16,788 nt of DNA from a virus (lineage: Duplodnaviria > Heunggongvirae > Uroviricota > Caudoviricetes): IMG/VR virus record IMGVR_UViG_2667528074_000009, one strand, 5' to 3'. The notes beneath the pieces were generated by a model. That model was not told the origin of the DNA, made no database searches, and was given only the letters and a program-made list of their open reading frames with translations. Shown here piece by piece: positions 1,655-15,501 of this stretch. Both the position numbers and the translations under genes were made by a program. The number at the start of each line of letters is the position of its first letter. The first letter of the stretch is position 1.

Positions 1655-2704
1655 TTATCCGAGTACGCCAGTTGCAAAGGCGTGATCAAGAAAACGAAAA
1701 ATTAAATCAACCTGAGAACCATGCTTTTCTTCGAACGCCTGCGGATCTGCATGAAGTTCGTTGTGATGTTCCCGGCACAGCGGCAACGTAAAAATATCGT
1801 GGGCTTTTGTCCCCATTCCGCCCTGACCGTGACCAATCAGGTGATGTGGATCGTCTGCTGTCTTACCACAACACGTACACGGCTGTGTCTTTACCCAGCG
1901 CGTGTATTTCTCATTCACCCAGCGGCGACGTTTAGGCCGCTTCATGAATGATTCCGGTGACTCAGGATCAACGGCAATGCTGACCACCGTCTTTTCCTGT
2001 GGTGGGTTCTGTTGCTGGTGGGCTAGAGGCGGTAGCGCAATATTTTTTGTGCGCTGCTTCAGTATGCTGGTGGCTGTCTGCTCTCCCGGTACGATGTCGC
2101 TCTCGCGGTACACAGAGCGGATTTTTTCCGTACGTAATCCCAACGAACGACGTAATACTGCCTCCGGTAGCGCGTCCGCCACCTGATTGCAGACCGCCCA
2201 CCAGGATAACTCAGCCAGCGATAATTCCCGCTCTTGCGTACCATTCATTGCATGGCGTATGACGTCAATCATCCATGCTGTCAGATTTTGTTGAGCAAGC
2301 TGCCCGAGTGATTCGGATGTCTGGTCGCGCAGCTGGTTGTCGCAGTGCCAGCACAACACCATTGCGCCGGTACCGTAACGATGTATGACGGTTTCACTGT
2401 GGTGATAGTCTCCATGAGGCCACTGGCAGGATTTAACATGACGCAGGAGCCAGTCAGACAGTGCACCAGTGCCACCGGCAGCACGAATTACCCGCTCATT
2501 GCTGAAAAATGGCAGTAATGATTTATCTTCCGCCAGCGGCTGGCGAACGGCAGGGACGGCTCCGGACGGCAGACCGCGCATACTTTTCGGTTCCGGCTCC
2601 ACCAGCACTCGAGGGCTATGAAATACCTGCATGGATTCACGGCCCGGCTTTAGCACCACCAGTCCGAGTTCCGGTACCAGGGCAGGTCGAACTAATACCC
2701 GCAC
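1655..2704 (-). CDS. ydfU: DUF968-family protein (YdfU-like), 349 aa
   Basis: 349-aa ORF matching the length of the Qin YdfU protein, with a C-terminal Cys/His-rich region (CTCCGK...HHLIGHGQGG...CREHH). GTG start at 2704 preceded by GGAGG at 5-nt spacing. Confidence 0.75.
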   Translation of the reverse strand: MRVLVRPALVPELGLVVLKPGRESMQVFHSPRVLVEPEPKSMRGLPSGAVPAVRQPLAEDKSLLPFFSNERVIRAAGGTGALSDWLLRHVKSCQWPHGDYHHSETVIHRYGTGAMVLCWHCDNQLRDQTSESLGQLAQQNLTAWMIDVIRHAMNGTQERELSLAELSWWAVCNQVADALPEAVLRRSLGLRTEKIRSVYRESDIVPGEQTATSILKQRTKNIALPPLAHQQQNPPQEKTVVSIAVDPESPESFMKRPKRRRWVNEKYTRWVKTQPCTCCGKTADDPHHLIGHGQGGMGTKAHDIFTLPLCREHHNELHADPQAFEEKHGSQVDLIFRFLDHAFATGVLG

Positions 2705-2705
2705 G

Positions 2706-2978
2706 TTACCTCCAGATCCGTTGCTGGTATGTGCGGGACGGACGCGGTGGGCGTTCGGAATAAGGGAGTTTGACGTAGATTATCCAGAGACGATAATCGA
2801 GGCTGAGAGCTTTCTTAATCTCGTATCCGCGTCTGCGGTAGTTCTGAATCAGCCATTCGGCCTGTTCTTCAGTGCATGGGTCATGCTGGTACCAGTCATA
2901 TTTGAATGCATGAGAACGCCGCCCGTGCCTGCTGGCAAGGTCGGTATCAGAATTGTGATGTTTGGCATTGTGCGCCAT
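2706..2978 (-). CDS. Hypothetical protein (about 90 aa), positional equivalent of rem between hok and ydfU
   Basis: ATG at 2978 (MAHNAKHH...). The longer ORF-track start at 3089 would read through the terminator hairpin at 3055-3080. Stop TAA sits 1 nt before the DUF968 GTG. No family recognised. Confidence 0.4.
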   Translation of the reverse strand: MAHNAKHHNSDTDLASRHGRRSHAFKYDWYQHDPCTEEQAEWLIQNYRRRGYEIKKALSLDYRLWIIYVKLPYSERPPRPSRTYQQRIWR

Positions 2979-3054
2979 CGGTTTTCTCTGCTGGCGCAGC
3001 AGGTGCCAGTTGTTCAGGCTGGCCTGTGGATTGTAAACCAGAATACGTAAAACA

Positions 3055-3080
3055 AAAAACCCGCCGAAGCGGGTTTTCAT
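3055..3080. terminator. Bidirectional intrinsic terminator; copy 1 of a 21-bp direct repeat
   Basis: AAAAA-CCCGC-cgaa-GCGGG-TTTT; T-tract on plus, A-tract giving a T-run on minus. Lies 12 nt downstream of the Doc stop on the minus strand. The 21 bp at 3055-3075 are identical to 3904-3924. Confidence 0.6.
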
Positions 3081-3091
3081 TGGAAGCACCT

Positions 3092-3577
3092 TTAGTTTTG
3101 CTGTTCTATTTTAAGCTTGATAGTTTCATACAAAACAATAGTTGCGCCTGTTTTACATAATTCCCGGCTGTCATACGCACGAGACCAATAACACAACCAG
3201 TTCTCGAGATCTTCTCGAGTATAGGTTTTGCAGGCCAGTCCCTCTGCCATTTCCACGATTTCATCGCCTGGTGCTGTTAACTCATAGCCATTCAACAACA
3301 AGAAGACGTAACCAGCCATCATAGCTGTTCGTTTGTTCGCATTAGCAAACGGATGATTCTGAATCAGACTTTCAATCAATACCGATGCCAGTACAAACAT
3401 GTCATTGATCTGTTCATACCATCGAACCATGCTGGGACGGGCCTGAGAAGAACTTAAGTTATCTGGACTCAGAACACCAACGGGCTCATCTGGCGTCTGT
3501 AATTCAATTAGGGAACGATTGATTTCAACAAGATCATCAACCGTAAGGTAATGCACACCTTCAACAATCTCAGCCAT
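3092..3577 (-). CDS. doc: Doc/Fic-family toxin (death-on-curing-like), 161 aa
   Basis: Contains HPFANANKRTAM, matching the Doc variant of the Fic motif (P1 Doc has HIFNDANKRTAL). Preceded 20 nt upstream by a small antitoxin-sized gene. Confidence 0.8.
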   Translation of the reverse strand: MAEIVEGVHYLTVDDLVEINRSLIELQTPDEPVGVLSPDNLSSSQARPSMVRWYEQINDMFVLASVLIESLIQNHPFANANKRTAMMAGYVFLLLNGYELTAPGDEIVEMAEGLACKTYTREDLENWLCYWSRAYDSRELCKTGATIVLYETIKLKIEQQN

Positions 3578-3597
3578 GGAGTACAGCCCCCCATCTA

Positions 3598-3777
3598 TTA
3601 CACTTTAGAGAGGTCTTCCATGGCTTTCTCATAACGAGAAAAACCGAAATCAAAAGCATTTTTCACTTGTTCACGATGTGCGCAGTTTTCATCAATCGCT
3701 GGGCGAGGGACTGCCACAACGCTTTTATCGCGAGGCGGAATACTCAACCGCGTGTGTTTTTTGAGTGGGCAGCTCAT
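3598..3777 (-). CDS. Putative antitoxin cognate to the Doc-family toxin (59 aa)
   Basis: ATG at 3777 with AAGGA RBS about 9 nt upstream (MSCPLKKHTRLSIPPRDKSVVAVPRPAIDE...). Stop TAA 3600..3598 is 20 nt before the toxin start. Family not recognised (not Phd-like by eye). Confidence 0.55.
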   Translation of the reverse strand: MSCPLKKHTRLSIPPRDKSVVAVPRPAIDENCAHREQVKNAFDFGFSRYEKAMEDLSKV

Positions 3778-3903
3778 ACTAATGAGTCCTTTTGTTTTCC
3801 GATTATTGGCAAAGCCATGCACCAAATTTGATGCAAAATAGATCTGTTTGAGATCCTTAGGATAGTCTAATGGTAGCTAAAATTACAACCTCATAATGCG
3901 ACG

Positions 3904-3928
3904 AAAAACCCGCCGAAGCGGGTTAAGT
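3904..3928. terminator. Intrinsic terminator hairpin; copy 2 of the 21-bp direct repeat; likely 3' end of the hok mRNA
   Basis: AAAAACCCGCCGAAGCGGGTT at 3904-3924, identical to 3055-3075. Lies about 70 nt downstream of the hok stop on the minus strand. Confidence 0.55.
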
Positions 3929-3992
3929 GCGGGTGCGTTGAGGATGCCTGACACATCAGAGGTGGCGAGGGATTTCTCCCCCGCCGGGTCTC

Positions 3993-4148
3993 TTACTCCT
4001 CAGGTTCGTAAGCTGTGAAGACAGCGACCTCCGTCTGGCCGGTTCGGATTCGTACCTCGCAGAGGTCTTTCCTCGTTACCAGTGCCGTCACTATGACGGT
4101 TAAACAGATGACGATCAGGGCGATTAACATCGCCTTTTGCTGCTTCAT
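3993..4148 (-). CDS. hokD: Hok/Gef-family type I toxin (HokD/RelF-like), 51 aa
   Basis: Translation MKQQKAMLIALIVICLTVIVTALVTRKDLCEVRIRTGQTEVAVFTAYEPEE matches the HokD/RelF sequence as I recall it. GGAG RBS upstream of ATG 4148; stop TAA 3995..3993. Missing from the ORF track because it is under 60 aa. Confidence 0.9.
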   Translation of the reverse strand: MKQQKAMLIALIVICLTVIVTALVTRKDLCEVRIRTGQTEVAVFTAYEPEE

Positions 4149-4206
4149 AGCCTGCTTCTCCTTGACCTTTCGGTCCGTAAGAGGCTAACCTATGTTTGTG
4201 TGGCAT
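4000..4206 (-). CDS. mok: mok-like overlapping reading frame (68 codons)
   Basis: A 68-codon ORF starts upstream of hok and overlaps it almost entirely in another frame, the arrangement of mok in hok/mok/sok loci. Coding status inferred from position only. Confidence 0.45.
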   Translation of the reverse strand: MPHKHRLASYGPKGQGEAGYEAAKGDVNRPDRHLFNRHSDGTGNEERPLRGTNPNRPDGGRCLHSLRT

Positions 4207-4260
4207 AGATTGGGCCTCAGATTAATGTTAAGCGTCCTGCAAGACGCGTAATGTTAACTG
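4185..4260 (+). ncRNA. sok: Possible Sok-like antisense RNA (approximate, unverified)
   Basis: In hok/mok/sok loci Sok is antisense to the mok translation-initiation region, which here is around 4200. A TTGACC -35-like hexamer lies at 4162-4167 and an imperfect hairpin at 4233-4248. Boundaries are guesses. Confidence 0.2.
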
Positions 4261-4486
4261 GGGCTTTTCTCTGTCTGCCTTACAGTGGCATGCCCGAGGC
4301 AGACAGCCTCAAGCACCCGCAGCAATCTTACCGACACCGATAAGAAAACGCTATTTTTTATTGCCAGCACCATCTATCCAGGCTAATTTATCTGCGTCAG
4401 AACGGCGCAATGCGCTCGCCTGAGATACGTTTACTTGTCATTGGTAACAACAGATAACGGCAATTGTTGTTTCTGTTTTGTTTCCT

Positions 4487-9604: not shown

Positions 9605-10030
9605 TTAGTGCATCACCACGGCATTTCCCGCCGGGCCACCACGATTCATCTGATCGAACAGAACGATCGCTGATGCAACGAAATCATCAATATCTTTCAC
9701 CAGCCGTTCCTTCGTCTCTACCAACTCCCGAAAATAAGCGGAACTGTGGCTGCGCATTCGGGCCACCAGCGGAGGCGGCATCGCTTTTTCGATCGCTGGT
9801 AACAACGCCTGAATTTTTTTAACCGCATCAGGAGTGTCTTTCTCCACCCAGCGGAAAATTTTCTGGGTGTTACGGCCCAGGGCTTCAGGATGGCTGTCGT
9901 CGTACAGTTCCGGGAACGTCATACCCAGTTCGAAATACGCTTTGGTAATTTTCGCAGCCGGTACTTTCTCGCCGTCCGGATGCGCCCAGGCATTCATCGC
10001 CATGCGGATGTGTTCATGCTTGATTTTCAT
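9605..10030 (-). CDS. YdaT-like (CII-analog) regulatory protein, 141 aa
   Basis: Begins MKIKHEHI..., length and position immediately downstream of the Cro-like gene match the Rac YdaT family. AGGAG RBS 8 nt upstream of ATG 10030; overlaps the Cro-like 3' end by 17 nt. Family call from memory. Confidence 0.55.
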   Translation of the reverse strand: MKIKHEHIRMAMNAWAHPDGEKVPAAKITKAYFELGMTFPELYDDSHPEALGRNTQKIFRWVEKDTPDAVKKIQALLPAIEKAMPPPLVARMRSHSSAYFRELVETKERLVKDIDDFVASAIVLFDQMNRGGPAGNAVVMH

Positions 10031-10295
10031 GAATCAAGCTCCTGGAAAGTGGTTGTGTTAACGTTTGGGTATCTTCCAGCTCGGGCCAAATGTTCATCCA
10101 ATCAAAAGGCCGTAGTTGCTGACGTGTAACTTCACCATTACTAGCTCGCTCAATAAGGACACATAACGATGCCCCTAACACTTGACCTTTACTCAATGCT
10201 TTTCTTAGATAACCGATGCTAGTACCACACTCACATGCAAACATACGCTGTTCATCTGACGAAATAGAATTGAGAAATATTCTTAATTCTTCCAT
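10014..10295 (-). CDS. Cro-like HTH regulator (YdaS/DicC-like position), 93 aa
   Basis: Divergent from the repressor gene across an operator-bearing region; AAGGAG RBS 5-6 nt upstream of ATG 10295; HTH-like segment CECGTSIGYLRKALSKGQ. Confidence 0.6.
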   Translation of the reverse strand: MEELRIFLNSISSDEQRMFACECGTSIGYLRKALSKGQVLGASLCVLIERASNGEVTRQQLRPFDWMNIWPELEDTQTLTQPLSRSLIHENQA

Positions 10296-10395: not shown

Positions 10396-10815
10396 ATGGA
10401 CAAATATGAATTTAGACGAAAGCAACTCATCAAAATTCGTGATGAGAAATGCGATGGTAAAGCGGTTAACGTGGCCAGAAAAATCGGCCGCGAGCCTTCT
10501 TATGTATCAAGAATGTTGTACCCAGAGGGGAAAAAAGGGAAAAAACGGATCGCTGATGATATGGTGGAGATTATCGAAGAATCCTTTGGGTTACCCAGGG
10601 GATGGATGGATGGTATCGTTTCATCATCAACGAACACAACCTCCAATTATGAAACAAGGGTTCTAACACCACGACAACGTATTTTTTTAGATCTCTTGGA
10701 CGAACTGCCAGAAAGCGAAGCGGATAACCTATTAAAAACTCTTGAAGAGAAAAAACAATATTACAATATGATCTACGAAGAAATCAGCAAAAAGAAAGCA
10801 CGAAACGCATCATAG
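10396..10815 (+). CDS. CI-type repressor (DicA-like), 139 aa, probably leaderless
   Basis: N-terminal HTH (GKAVNVARKIGREPSYVSRML); C-terminal LTPRQRIFLDLLDELPESEADNLL resembles the DicA C-terminus as recalled. ATG 10396 lies about 7 nt after the candidate -10 with no RBS. The ORF-track start at 10354 falls inside the operator/promoter. Confidence 0.7.
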   Translation: MDKYEFRRKQLIKIRDEKCDGKAVNVARKIGREPSYVSRMLYPEGKKGKKRIADDMVEIIEESFGLPRGWMDGIVSSSTNTTSNYETRVLTPRQRIFLDLLDELPESEADNLLKTLEEKKQYYNMIYEEISKKKARNAS

Positions 10816-13041: not shown

Positions 13042-15501
13042 ATGCGCACTGATAAAGAAGAATTTGCATTATATTGTGAAGCAAAAAATGACAAAGTCAG
13101 AAAACGCCTTGGAATTAAAGGTGGTTTTTACTGGACTACAGCAAAAAAATTATCTGTTGCCATCTCCCGCTGCATTACCGCAATGGATGACAACGATTAT
13201 GATGAAGACGACTTTAAAAAACCCGTCCGCGTCCATTTACCCGTTGTGAATGACCTTCCACCTGAAGGCGTGTTTGATACTGAATTCTGTAACCGTTACG
13301 AAAAAGGCGGGGAAGATGGCATCACAATGGTATTTATCGCGCCCTCACCCTCTGCGCAGGACAAACCAGCCAACACTGACAATACCAACGTCAACGGCGA
13401 AGACATGACTGAGATTGAGGAGAACATGCTCCTGCCGGTTTCAGGTCAGATTCTGCCTGTTCGATGGCTGGCACAGCACGGCAGCAAAAAACCGATCACA
13501 CACGTTTCGCGGGACGAACTGCGCGCATTACATAACGCACAGGATGAAAAACTTCCCGCCGTTACCGCGCTGGCTATCTCAAATAAAGCAGCGCAACTCG
13601 AACCGCTGGAGATTCGCGATCTCCACAAACTGGTGCGAGACACTGACAAAGTTTTCCCCGCCCCCGTAAATTCGGACCTGGGACTGATAACCTCTTTTAT
13701 CGAAGCATACCTGGACGCCGACTACACCGATCGCGGTCTGCTGACAAAAGAGTGGATGAAAGGAAATCGTGTTTCGCGTATCACCCGTACGGCTTCCGGT
13801 GCAAATGCCGGTGGCGGGAACAAAACCGATCGCAATCCGAATTTAGTACACACCTTCGATACGCTGGATGTGGAGATTGCAGCAGCCACACTTCCGATGG
13901 ATTTTAATATTTATGAAATTCCGGGCAGCGTTTATCGTCGCGCAAAAGACATCGTCCTGAAAAGAGAAAGTCCGTTCAAAGAATGGTCCGCAGCACTTCG
14001 CGCAACCCCGGGTATTCTTGACTATTCCCGCGCCGCTATTTTTGCACTTATCCGGAGCGCCCACCCTGAGTTTTATCACTACCCGGGACGCCTTCAGGGG
14101 TATATCAACGCCCACTTAACGGAGACTGATCACGAGAACCCCAGCAAGGAAACTCTCGCTGCTGCACGACATACACCGGAAAAGGATATCCTGGAAGAAG
14201 TTAACCGCGAACTGGCTGCTGAACGCGAAACAGAAGAAGAAAAAAATAATGAGGAAAAATCACAACCGTCTGACGCAATGGCAGATGAACAGGCAACGAC
14301 TACTGAAGCAATGGGACAGGATACAACTGAACATCGCCAGGACACACAATCGCTGGATACTCAGGCACAGATAAATCCGGTTAATCAGGTAAAAGTTACC
14401 GCTGTCGAAGTAAACAAAATTATGCAGGCAGCCAATATCAACCAGCCTGATGCCGACAAAATACTGGCAGTCCATCGCGGTGAGTTCGTTGACGGAATTA
14501 GCGACCCGAATGATCCGAAATGGGTTAAGGGGATTGAAACCCGCGATTCTGTGAACCAGAACCAGCCCGAATCGGAACAAAACGACCAGAAAGCGGAACA
14601 AAACAGCCCAAATGCGTTACAAAACGAGCCAGAAACGAAACAGCCTGAACCAGAAGAGCAACAAGAACCGGAAAAAGTCTGCACCGCCTGCGGTCAGACC
14701 GGCAGCGGCAACTGTCCTGACTGTGGCGCGGTGATGGGCAACGCAACATACCAGGAAACATTCGATGAAAAAAATCAGGCTGAAGTTCAGGAAGATGATC
14801 CGGAGGAAATGGAAGGCGCTGAACATCCGAACAATGAGAATGCTGGTAACGATCAGCATCACACCAGCGATAGTGAAACTGGCGAGGCGGCAGATCCCTT
14901 AATTGCGGTGAACGGTCATCACGTTATCACATCCACCAGCAGAGTGTGGATTCACCTGTCGGTCGACCTTGAAACGATGGGAACAAATCCTGATGCGCCA
15001 ATCAACTCTATTGGCGGTAAATTTTTTGATCCGGCAACCGGAGAGATGGGGCCTGAATTCAGTAAAGCTATCGATCTGGAAACCTCCGGCGGAATCATCG
15101 ACCGTAAAACAATAAAGTGGTGGGCGAAACGATCACGCGAAGCACAATCCGCTATTTTTACCGATGAAATCTCGTTAGATGTTGCTCTCCGGCTATTCAT
15201 AGAATTTATCGAAAAAAACTCCGGCGGGTGTTTTGTCCAGGTATGGGGAAATGGAGCCAACTTCGACAACGTAATTTTACGCCGTTCATATGAACGGCAG
15301 GGGATCCCCTGCCCATGGCTTTACTACAACGATCGCGATGTACGCACAATCGTTGAACTGGGTAATGCCATTGGCTTTGATGTCAGAATGGCTATTCCAT
15401 TCGAAGGCGTACCCCACAATGCGCTGGACGATGCCCGTCACCAGGCAAAACAAGTTTCAGCAATCTGGCAAAGACTGATCCCGCGTCAGGCTGATTTTTA
15501 A
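13042..15501 (+). CDS. Large early-left-operon protein (819 aa) with C-terminal DEDDh-type 3'-5' exonuclease domain, acidic low-complexity linker and CxxC-N9-CxxC zinc ribbon
   Basis: C-terminal motifs VDLETMG (Exo I), WGNGANFDNVIL (Exo II) and HNALDDARHQA (Exo III); central region about aa 380-620 is rich in E/D/Q/N/T; CTACGQTGSGNCPDCG around aa 545-560; GAGG RBS 8 nt upstream. Occupies the slot of ydfE (truncated in K-12 Qin). Confidence 0.75.
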   Translation: MRTDKEEFALYCEAKNDKVRKRLGIKGGFYWTTAKKLSVAISRCITAMDDNDYDEDDFKKPVRVHLPVVNDLPPEGVFDTEFCNRYEKGGEDGITMVFIAPSPSAQDKPANTDNTNVNGEDMTEIEENMLLPVSGQILPVRWLAQHGSKKPITHVSRDELRALHNAQDEKLPAVTALAISNKAAQLEPLEIRDLHKLVRDTDKVFPAPVNSDLGLITSFIEAYLDADYTDRGLLTKEWMKGNRVSRITRTASGANAGGGNKTDRNPNLVHTFDTLDVEIAAATLPMDFNIYEIPGSVYRRAKDIVLKRESPFKEWSAALRATPGILDYSRAAIFALIRSAHPEFYHYPGRLQGYINAHLTETDHENPSKETLAAARHTPEKDILEEVNRELAAERETEEEKNNEEKSQPSDAMADEQATTTEAMGQDTTEHRQDTQSLDTQAQINPVNQVKVTAVEVNKIMQAANINQPDADKILAVHRGEFVDGISDPNDPKWVKGIETRDSVNQNQPESEQNDQKAEQNSPNALQNEPETKQPEPEEQQEPEKVCTACGQTGSGNCPDCGAVMGNATYQETFDEKNQAEVQEDDPEEMEGAEHPNNENAGNDQHHTSDSETGEAADPLIAVNGHHVITSTSRVWIHLSVDLETMGTNPDAPINSIGGKFFDPATGEMGPEFSKAIDLETSGGIIDRKTIKWWAKRSREAQSAIFTDEISLDVALRLFIEFIEKNSGGCFVQVWGNGANFDNVILRRSYERQGIPCPWLYYNDRDVRTIVELGNAIGFDVRMAIPFEGVPHNALDDARHQAKQVSAIWQRLIPRQADF

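Follow-up and report, generated by a model that had tools for sequence, protein, structure and literature searches.

Adjoining hok and Doc toxin genes in a variable slot of an Escherichia coli lambdoid prophage: probably two independent toxin–antitoxin units

Introduction

Do two toxin genes that lie side by side in a prophage form one coupled system, or are they separate units that share a site for exchangeable cargo? The question is raised by a 16,788-nucleotide stretch of viral DNA (IMG/VR record IMGVR_UViG_2667528074_000009; Caudoviricetes), called the window below, which is part of a Qin/Rac-type lambdoid prophage of Escherichia coli. Near the end of its early-right operon, in a nin-like region, the window carries the type I toxin gene hok, followed by a gene for a Doc-family toxin with a small open reading frame (ORF) directly upstream of it. 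A preliminary description of this DNA, made from the letters alone, had placed a Hok toxin and a type II, Doc-family toxin–antitoxin (TA) pair next to each other at 3092–4206. Content and coordinates are both borne out: all elements lie on the minus strand, and the stop codon of Doc and the start codon of mok form the exact ends of the span. It had further suggested that the locus is a recurring toxin slot in which the Doc pair takes the place that relBE occupies in the Qin prophage of K-12.

The reading favoured here, with a probability of roughly 0.75, is that the window holds two independent tandem TA units, a type I hok/mok/sok locus and a Doc moron, in a variable nin-like slot. Both TA systems are of known kinds, and two known types adjoining in a prophage accessory region are unsurprising in themselves. 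What is modestly new is an unannotated family of probable antitoxins outside the Phd family, together with a precisely mapped slot.

A discrete cassette downstream of hok

The insertion is best seen against related phages in which the site is empty. In two of these (L096 and L126) hok is followed by a single terminator and then by p90-ydfU, a conserved gene pair that forms the right anchor of the slot. In both phages the counterparts of window positions 4326..3905 and 3075..2658 adjoin and have the 20 bp of the terminator in common. These alignments show that the window has 829 extra base pairs (3904..3076, minus strand) between two copies of a 20-mer, AACCCGCTTCGGCGGGTTTT. The left copy, T1 (3905..3924, minus strand), is the hok terminator hairpin and marks the left boundary of the Doc cassette; it is missed by a simple terminator scan, its T-run being short once the stem is extended. 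The right copy, T2 (3056..3075, minus strand), marks the other boundary and is called by the scan as a 10-pair stem with a T-run (3078–3055). The flank to the right of T2 is that of the empty site. Doc-bearing prophages with unrelated downstream genes locate the same edge: homology stops exactly at T2 in every context examined. Doc is followed by DUF1367/DUF1364/DUF1133 in O157:H7 and in avian pathogenic E. coli (APEC) O1, by a RelE-like (PF06296) plus helix–turn–helix (HTH) pair, ORF6N and NinB in O104:H4, and by rem-p90-DUF968 in RSHH22. The cassette has a G+C content of 42.9%, compared with 53.8% in both the hok locus and p90-ydfU.

About 125 nt of intergenic DNA separate T1 from the small ORF. 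This interval contains a candidate sigma-70 promoter of the antitoxin–Doc operon (3859..3888, minus strand), composed of TTGTAA (3888–3883), an 18-nt spacer and TATCCT (3864–3859). Two variants of the region upstream of the small gene have diverged by about 50% and share only the elements TTGTrA, 18 nt and TATsCT, and from this conservation we infer the promoter. On its insertion and its own terminator the cassette fits, at the level of sequence, the definition of a moron, with the promoter as a putative third element. A plasmid origin was considered and rejected: the sole match in PLSDB is one Proteus record, 68% identical.

The hok locus and the Doc toxin gene

The hok/sok type I locus is complete, with a Hok peptide, an overlapping mok frame, a leader with the sok region and a 3' terminator. 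The hok gene (3993..4148, minus strand; 51 amino acids (aa); PF01848, E=1.2e-23) encodes a protein 100% identical to K-12 HokD by tblastn, and DNA identity to K-12 hokD is 99.6% over window positions 3904–4162. The mok reading frame (4000..4206, minus strand; 68 aa), taken from the ORF list, overlaps hok; a family match is not expected for mok. The 5' leader of the hok mRNA, which includes the target of sok and the region of the antisense sok gene (4146..4318, minus strand), matches Rfam model RF01794 at 109.4 bits, where the gathering score is 59. This match covers positions 1–157 of the 157 in the model, runs in the hok sense and ends at the hok ATG. A separate, weak Rfam match to isrK, an Hfq-binding small RNA of a Salmonella prophage, falls on the hok 3' untranslated region and terminator (3903–3984, minus strand; 26 bits, below the gathering score of 50; E=0.001), and is probably due to the terminator hairpin.

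The toxin gene of the cassette (3092..3577, minus strand) encodes a 161-aa protein of the Doc family, with a Fic fold. TIGR01550 (DOC_P1) is matched at 128.4 bits, where the cut-off is 38.65, and PF02661 at 46 bits against 24 (E=1e-11); the match to phrog_577, 'Doc-like toxin', has E=2e-51, and matches in the PDB are to 9vzc (E=2.5e-13) and to P1 Doc, 3k33 (E=1e-5). NCBI PGAP annotation already names both the Doc toxin and HokD. The catalytic motif of Doc-type proteins is HxFx(D/N)(A/G)NKR, its histidine being H66 in P1 Doc. In the window protein, H75-P-F-A-N-A-N-K82-R83 is aligned opposite HIFNDANKR (H66..R74) of P1 Doc. The ratio of non-synonymous to synonymous substitution rates (dN/dS) of the Doc gene is 0.06–0.27, which indicates purifying selection. 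P1 Doc, a kinase with a Fic fold, phosphorylates EF-Tu and brings translation to a halt; by analogy, EF-Tu kinase activity is expected of the window protein, given that H75, K82 and R83 are conserved in the aligned motif. Among PADLOC models no window protein gave a significant match, the best being Doc against PDC-S23 (E=0.0018, 15.7 bits).

The small partner of Doc

The 59-aa ORF (3598..3777, minus strand) is a putative antitoxin gene on its synteny with Doc; 20 nt lie between its stop codon and the Doc ATG. Its product has no match in Pfam, NCBIfam or the PDB, the Pfam and PDB searches being null even at E<=10. The sole family match is phrog_2208, of unknown function, and only 13 clusters of such proteins occur among 5.8 billion proteins, all 'hypothetical' and all from Enterobacterales.

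The partnership itself is tightly conserved. With the Doc protein as query, 89 loci were retrieved from GTDB genomes and IMG/VR, and in 88 of these a homologue of the 59-aa protein (59–100% identity) is encoded directly upstream of Doc. The genera represented in the paired loci include Serratia, Providencia, Morganella, Rosenbergiella and Kluyvera; the lone unpaired locus is a Clostridiales Doc, 37% identical. Across loci the distance from the start of the small gene to that of Doc, downstream of it, is 187–199 nt (239 nt in L014). Its dN/dS of 0.05–0.13 indicates strong purifying selection. The C-terminal 23 residues are nearly invariant and the N-terminus is variable. In an AlphaFold (AF2) model, with a mean predicted local distance difference test (pLDDT) score of 73.5, the N-terminal half is disordered and residues 34–57 form a helix.

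No Phd/YefM or other DNA-binding domain is recognizable in the 59-aa protein, and the AF2 model shows just the C-terminal helix. Kinship with Phd was suggested by a by-eye match of the C-termini, which failed a shuffle test (p=0.19), and was rejected. Because the protein has a helix like those that bind toxins and has neither similarity to Phd nor a DNA-binding fold, it is probably a Doc antitoxin outside the Phd/YefM family. It may act like the C-terminus of Phd while standing outside the Phd family. From the invariance of the modelled helix, neutralization is expected to occur by laying this segment on the toxin.

Antitoxin and toxin genes have not always travelled as one block. Between the copy in O157:H7 F6294 (L003 4007–4690) and window positions 3092–3777, synonymous divergence (dS) is 0.04 in Doc and 0.74 in the 59-aa gene, a contrast that indicates a recombination breakpoint between antitoxin and toxin within the operon. 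The region upstream of the 59-aa gene in L003 is just about 50% identical to the window. The N-terminus of the antitoxin co-varies with the promoter variant.

Position relative to K-12 Qin

In K-12 the gene order is relB-relE-hokD-rem-ydfU-Q. Homology between the window and K-12 is limited to two stretches, 3904–4162, which comprises the terminator, the hok coding sequence and 14 nt upstream, and 1662–2995, the ydfU and p90 region (84%). As homology covers just these two stretches, K-12 relBE lies upstream of hokD, replacing the mok/sok leader. Insertion of relBE has been reported to have truncated the ancestral hokD/mok frame in K-12 (PMC6379469). The Doc pair lies downstream of hok, at the K-12 rem position. 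When present, rem is inserted about 8–56 nt past the terminator (window 3048–2999), and in two loci (L136 and L180) hok, Doc and rem occur together. The suggested exchange of RelBE for Doc is thus contradicted by the alignment: the two insertions lie at different positions, that of the leader in one case and that of K-12 rem in the other, and positional equivalence is ruled out. The relBE-hokD arrangement of K-12 is found in 1,163 of 5,426 complete E. coli genomes.

Variability of the slot

The broader proposal, that this is a recurring variable slot rich in toxin genes, fared better. Differing cargo was found at the hok/ydfU neighbourhood in about 150 related prophage contigs, drawn from three IMG/VR samples that are the best 80 contigs of more than 576 matches: one anchored on ydfU, one on Hok and one composed of contigs encoding the exact Doc protein.

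The ydfU-anchored sample, read for content upstream of p90-ydfU, has 76 informative contigs. In 25 of these hok is followed directly by p90-ydfU, and in 17 by rem. The remaining hok-bearing contigs carry a BOF (PF04076) protein (7), a 64-aa ORF (4), short inserts of about 450 bp with no recognized gene, one with a rem remnant (3), a 130-aa lipoprotein (3), a 216-aa protein paired with a 368-aa HTH-M78 protein (3), an HTH plus 158-aa M78 pair (1), ParDE (1), the Doc pair (1) or the Doc pair with rem (1). Ten contigs are without hok; these have ParDE (5, plus 1 remnant), NgoMIV-type restriction–modification (2), the Doc pair with rem (1) or unknown genes (1).

The second sample comprises 80 contigs whose Hok is identical to that of the window, read for content downstream of hok. 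The site is empty in 27 (and in 4 more with a short flank) and holds rem in 21 (and in 1 more with a short flank). DUF1367 follows, directly or after a 70-aa ORF, in 8, and the pair with the 368-aa HTH-M78 protein in 6. The 64-aa ORF, the lipoprotein, and p90 after an uncharacterized insert of about 290 bp were each seen twice; the pair with the 158-aa M78 protein, HicA(B) and a stretch with no recognized gene were each seen once. Four flanks are too short to classify, and Doc is found in none of the 80.

Several occupants are toxin or defence genes. In L097, L115, L121, L138 and L164, all without hok, genes for ParE (PF05016) and ParD (PF03693) immediately precede p90-ydfU on the opposite strand, and ParDE occurs together with hok in L135. 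In the hok-less phages a type II locus, ParDE, has genuinely taken the place of the type I locus. A HicA/HicB type II pair directly follows hok in L178 (11708–12486) and L246; the hok of L178 concerned is a second one, in a second prophage region, where homology to the window is lost as the hok terminator begins and other sequence takes the place of that terminator. A BstA-type abortive-infection gene (KilA-N plus BstA_C) lies just upstream of hok on the opposite strand in L179 and L181 (4155–4928), and L181, which in addition has genes for both the A and the B subunit of Shiga toxin (PF00161, PF02258), is a Shiga toxin (Stx) phage. An insert of about 1.8 kb after hok in L137, L146, L154 and L186 encodes the 216-aa protein and the 368-aa HTH_3-Peptidase_M78 (ImmA/IrrE-like) protein, and one of about 1.35 kb in L155 and L197 encodes a 119-aa HTH-like protein and the 158-aa M78 protein. 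Both HTH/M78 cassettes are candidate toxin or defence modules.

In all, at least 12 occupancy states were seen, among them ParDE, HicAB, the RelE-like plus HTH pair, the Doc pair, NgoMIV restriction–modification and BstA. The gene content supports the view that the hok/ydfU neighbourhood is a variable cargo slot, or hotspot, rich in toxin and defence genes.

The terminator hairpin as boundary

The hairpin is found at both edges of four unrelated cassettes: each begins immediately beyond the hok terminator, and at its far end a further copy of the hairpin leads into the flank known from empty sites. Between hairpin copies they measure 847–849 bp (Doc pair), 665 bp (130-aa lipoprotein), 1,348 bp (HTH plus 158-aa M78 pair) and 1,835 bp (216-aa protein plus 368-aa HTH-M78 pair). 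The exact 20-mer is present in at least 120 IMG/VR stretches (L264–L383); 88 of the 120 listed are without hok, and the flanks of the listed stretches are unrelated, with G+C contents of 30–67%. Its form is that of a near-ideal intrinsic terminator with a C(UUCG)G tetraloop, and it is apparently a generic, convergent phage terminator. Since the terminator is generic, identical hairpin copies need neither common descent nor a dedicated recombinase. The 20-mer also occurs in K-12 Qin, on the minus strand downstream of cspB (L001 position 1057).

One system or two?

Linkage of the two toxin loci is strong on the Doc side. The Doc cassette is present in 125 of the 5,426 complete E. coli genomes, always on the chromosome and at 129 places, and is contiguous with hok in 112 of the 125; in IMG/VR it adjoins hok in 42 of 46 informative loci. 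This figure of at least 90%, and a candidate Doc promoter that abuts the hok terminator, would suit a single coupled, two-layer system, for instance co-regulated toxins acting in abortive infection or lysis timing. Toxins of the nin region can have roles in the phage cycle, as hokW-sokW of prophage Sp5 influences phage release (PMC8621323). We nevertheless consider such coupling quite unlikely, since a terminator separates hok from the Doc pair and each is found without the other. Four loci of the E. coli type (L016, L020, L048 and L124) have the Doc pair and no hok, as do all 40 pair-carrying loci of a more distant class, in which Doc is 66–78% identical; several of the distant loci have a nin-like setting in which DnaC-like or P genes occur with DUF1367 and a p90-like gene. 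For Hok in these distant loci, eight family probes run at E<=10 gave nothing below E=0.2, no profile search being made. Conversely, a search of complete E. coli genomes with a query of Doc plus hok gave matches at 10,671 places; almost all of these owe their match to the hok portion, and Doc is missing from about 99% of hok-like matches. The two loci are thus separable, and the invariant co-occurrence that would have spoken against a slot with swappable contents is absent. The simplest reading of the linkage is a single insertion beside a ubiquitous conserved gene, which supplied flanking homology, and subsequent spread by recombination in the flanks.

Two further alternatives concern the parts of the cassette. 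If the 59-aa ORF were an unrelated phage gene, Doc would be a Fic-type enzyme that works alone or under some other control, or else a relic without activity. The absence of Pfam, NCBIfam and PDB similarity, the label 'hypothetical' in all databases and the lack of a recognizable DNA-binding domain all leave room for this; yet a constant place and distance relative to Doc in 88 of 89 loci, which span several genera and identities as low as 59%, the low dN/dS, an invariant C-terminal helix of the type that binds toxins, and a catalytic motif that is intact and under constraint make it the least probable of the alternatives weighed. A specific mechanism that recognizes AACCCGCTTCGGCGGGTTTT as a recombination site or linker could explain why four unrelated cassettes are bounded by identical hairpins and why HicAB, too, starts exactly at the hok terminator junction. 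Little credence is given to it: the 20-mer recurs in unrelated phages of widely differing base composition, most of those listed having no hok, the rem, 64-aa ORF and DUF1367 contexts have one copy only, and no recombinase gene is associated with the cassettes. The hairpin as a specific recombination site is heavily discounted on these grounds, while short-homology recombination between such terminators is possible.

Some observations weigh against the reading of two independent TA units. A consensus promoter scan calls no promoter, the candidate TTGTrA-18-TATsCT falling below its threshold. The 59-aa protein is without detectable similarity to Phd or to any family of known function, its AF2 model was built from only 10 sequences (pLDDT 73.5; predicted template modelling score 0.34), and PADLOC has no model for either protein of the pair. 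The IMG/VR samples are redundant, and the frequencies given above are counts of contigs, not of independent events.

Proposed origin and function

The two tandem units suggest the following scheme. (i) The nin-like region, late in the early operon, carries a complete hok/mok/sok locus and, after the hok terminator, an 829-bp self-contained moron made up of a probable promoter of its own, the 59-aa antitoxin gene, the 161-aa Doc toxin gene and its own terminator. (ii) In the lysogen the pair would be expressed from this promoter. (iii) Doc, by analogy with P1 Doc, would phosphorylate EF-Tu and lead to translation arrest, and the 59-aa protein would block Doc via its C-terminal helix. (iv) The cassette is proposed to have entered a slot with the hok terminator as its left edge and p90-ydfU as its right edge, a place taken by DUF1367 or NinB in other phages. 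(v) Later spread among E. coli lambdoid prophages would have occurred mostly as a linked hok–Doc block, although neither part would need the other. The likely benefit is prophage retention, through killing or arrest of cells that lose the prophage, or exclusion of other phages, or both.

A more far-reaching view is offered tentatively, as a possibility that we doubt more than we favour, though it stands well above the alternatives discussed. The 59-aa protein would represent a new minimal class of Doc antitoxin confined to phages of Enterobacterales, modelled as a disordered N-terminus and a single toxin-binding helix without a DNA-binding domain. The hok-terminator junction would be a hotspot of cassette exchange in lambdoid phages, with new anti-phage or addiction systems among its occupants: the 216-aa and 368-aa HTH-M78 pair, the 119-aa HTH and 158-aa M78 pair, the 130-aa lipoprotein and the 64-aa ORF. 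Short stretches of homology, provided by generic terminator hairpins, may favour this exchange.

These results provide an exact map of a variable cargo slot in very common lambdoid prophages of the Qin, Rac and Stx types of E. coli; strains with such prophages include O157:H7, O104:H4, enterotoxigenic E. coli and APEC. The tempting equation of the Doc pair with K-12 relBE is corrected, and a probable role, that of Doc antitoxin, is given to a small family listed as 'hypothetical' in every database. The slot is a potential source from which new toxin or defence cassettes could be mined.

Prophage context

The remaining genes of the window place it in its prophage. An integrase (15763–end) and a RecE-like exonuclease (13042–15501) are encoded on the plus strand. 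The early-right operon, on the minus strand, has in order YdaS/YdaT-like regulators, an HTH_36 replication protein, DUF1627, DUF977, DUF4406 and several unknown ORFs, and after these hok, the Doc region, p90, ydfU (DUF968) and the Q antiterminator. The conserved p90 gene (2706..2978, minus strand; phrog_1212, E=2.5e-36) immediately precedes ydfU in every ydfU-anchored locus; PGAP annotations give it a length of 90–92 aa, always coupled to ydfU. The ORF listed by the program at 2706–3089 (127 aa, GTG start) reads through the Doc terminator, and the conserved p90 protein begins at the ATG at 2978. The other half of the right anchor, ydfU (1655..2704, minus strand; DUF968/HNH-like; PF06147, E=7.6e-78), has 84% DNA identity to K-12 ydfU. 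A contig of assembly GCA_018456385.1 (JAENPM010000002.1) is 99.8% identical to the window across 9.6 kb.

Two ORFs at 9605–10295 (minus strand) match the Pfam families 'YdaS_toxin' and 'YdaT_toxin'. Because their place in the immunity region is that of cro/cII, the toxin names are probably misleading, and a third TA pair is unlikely here.

Comparison with known systems

A literature search, in which subscription papers were not covered, found neither a description of the slot between the hok terminator and p90-ydfU/DUF1367/NinB as a hotspot nor a report of the Doc pair itself or of the hok–Doc pairing. The components of the slot are readily compared with established systems. The closest parallel to the cassette is phd-doc of P1: the window toxin passes the DOC_P1 model and has the HxFx(D/N)ANKR motif, a small gene precedes the toxin gene, and both pairs are carried by temperate phages. 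There are clear differences. P1 Doc has 126 aa and the window protein 161, with about 30 extra residues at the C-terminus, and the two align weakly (E=1e-5, query residues 50–115). Phd/YefM proteins combine an N-terminal DNA-binding fold with a C-terminal toxin-binding helix, whereas the 59-aa partner is without the DNA-binding fold. The P1 pair belongs to a plasmid prophage, that of the window to an integrated lambdoid prophage.

As a unit of insertion the cassette resembles the phage morons of the Juhala/Hendrix concept, being a discrete element of lower G+C content, with its own terminator and a probable promoter, placed between genes that are adjacent in relatives. The hok locus encodes the same peptide as hokD (relF) of K-12 Qin and has the same position relative to ydfU and Q, but it retains the full leader, where K-12 has lost mok/sok to the relBE insertion. 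The hokW-sokW locus of the Sakai prophage Sp5 is likewise a complete type I locus within a lambdoid prophage (PMC8621323). The slot as a whole recalls the prophage defence hotspots described for P2/P4 (PMC9122126) and for BstA (PMC8585504), in which TA, restriction–modification and abortive-infection cargo also differs from phage to phage. Unlike these hotspots, it holds much cargo that is not obviously defensive, such as rem, the BOF protein and the lipoprotein.

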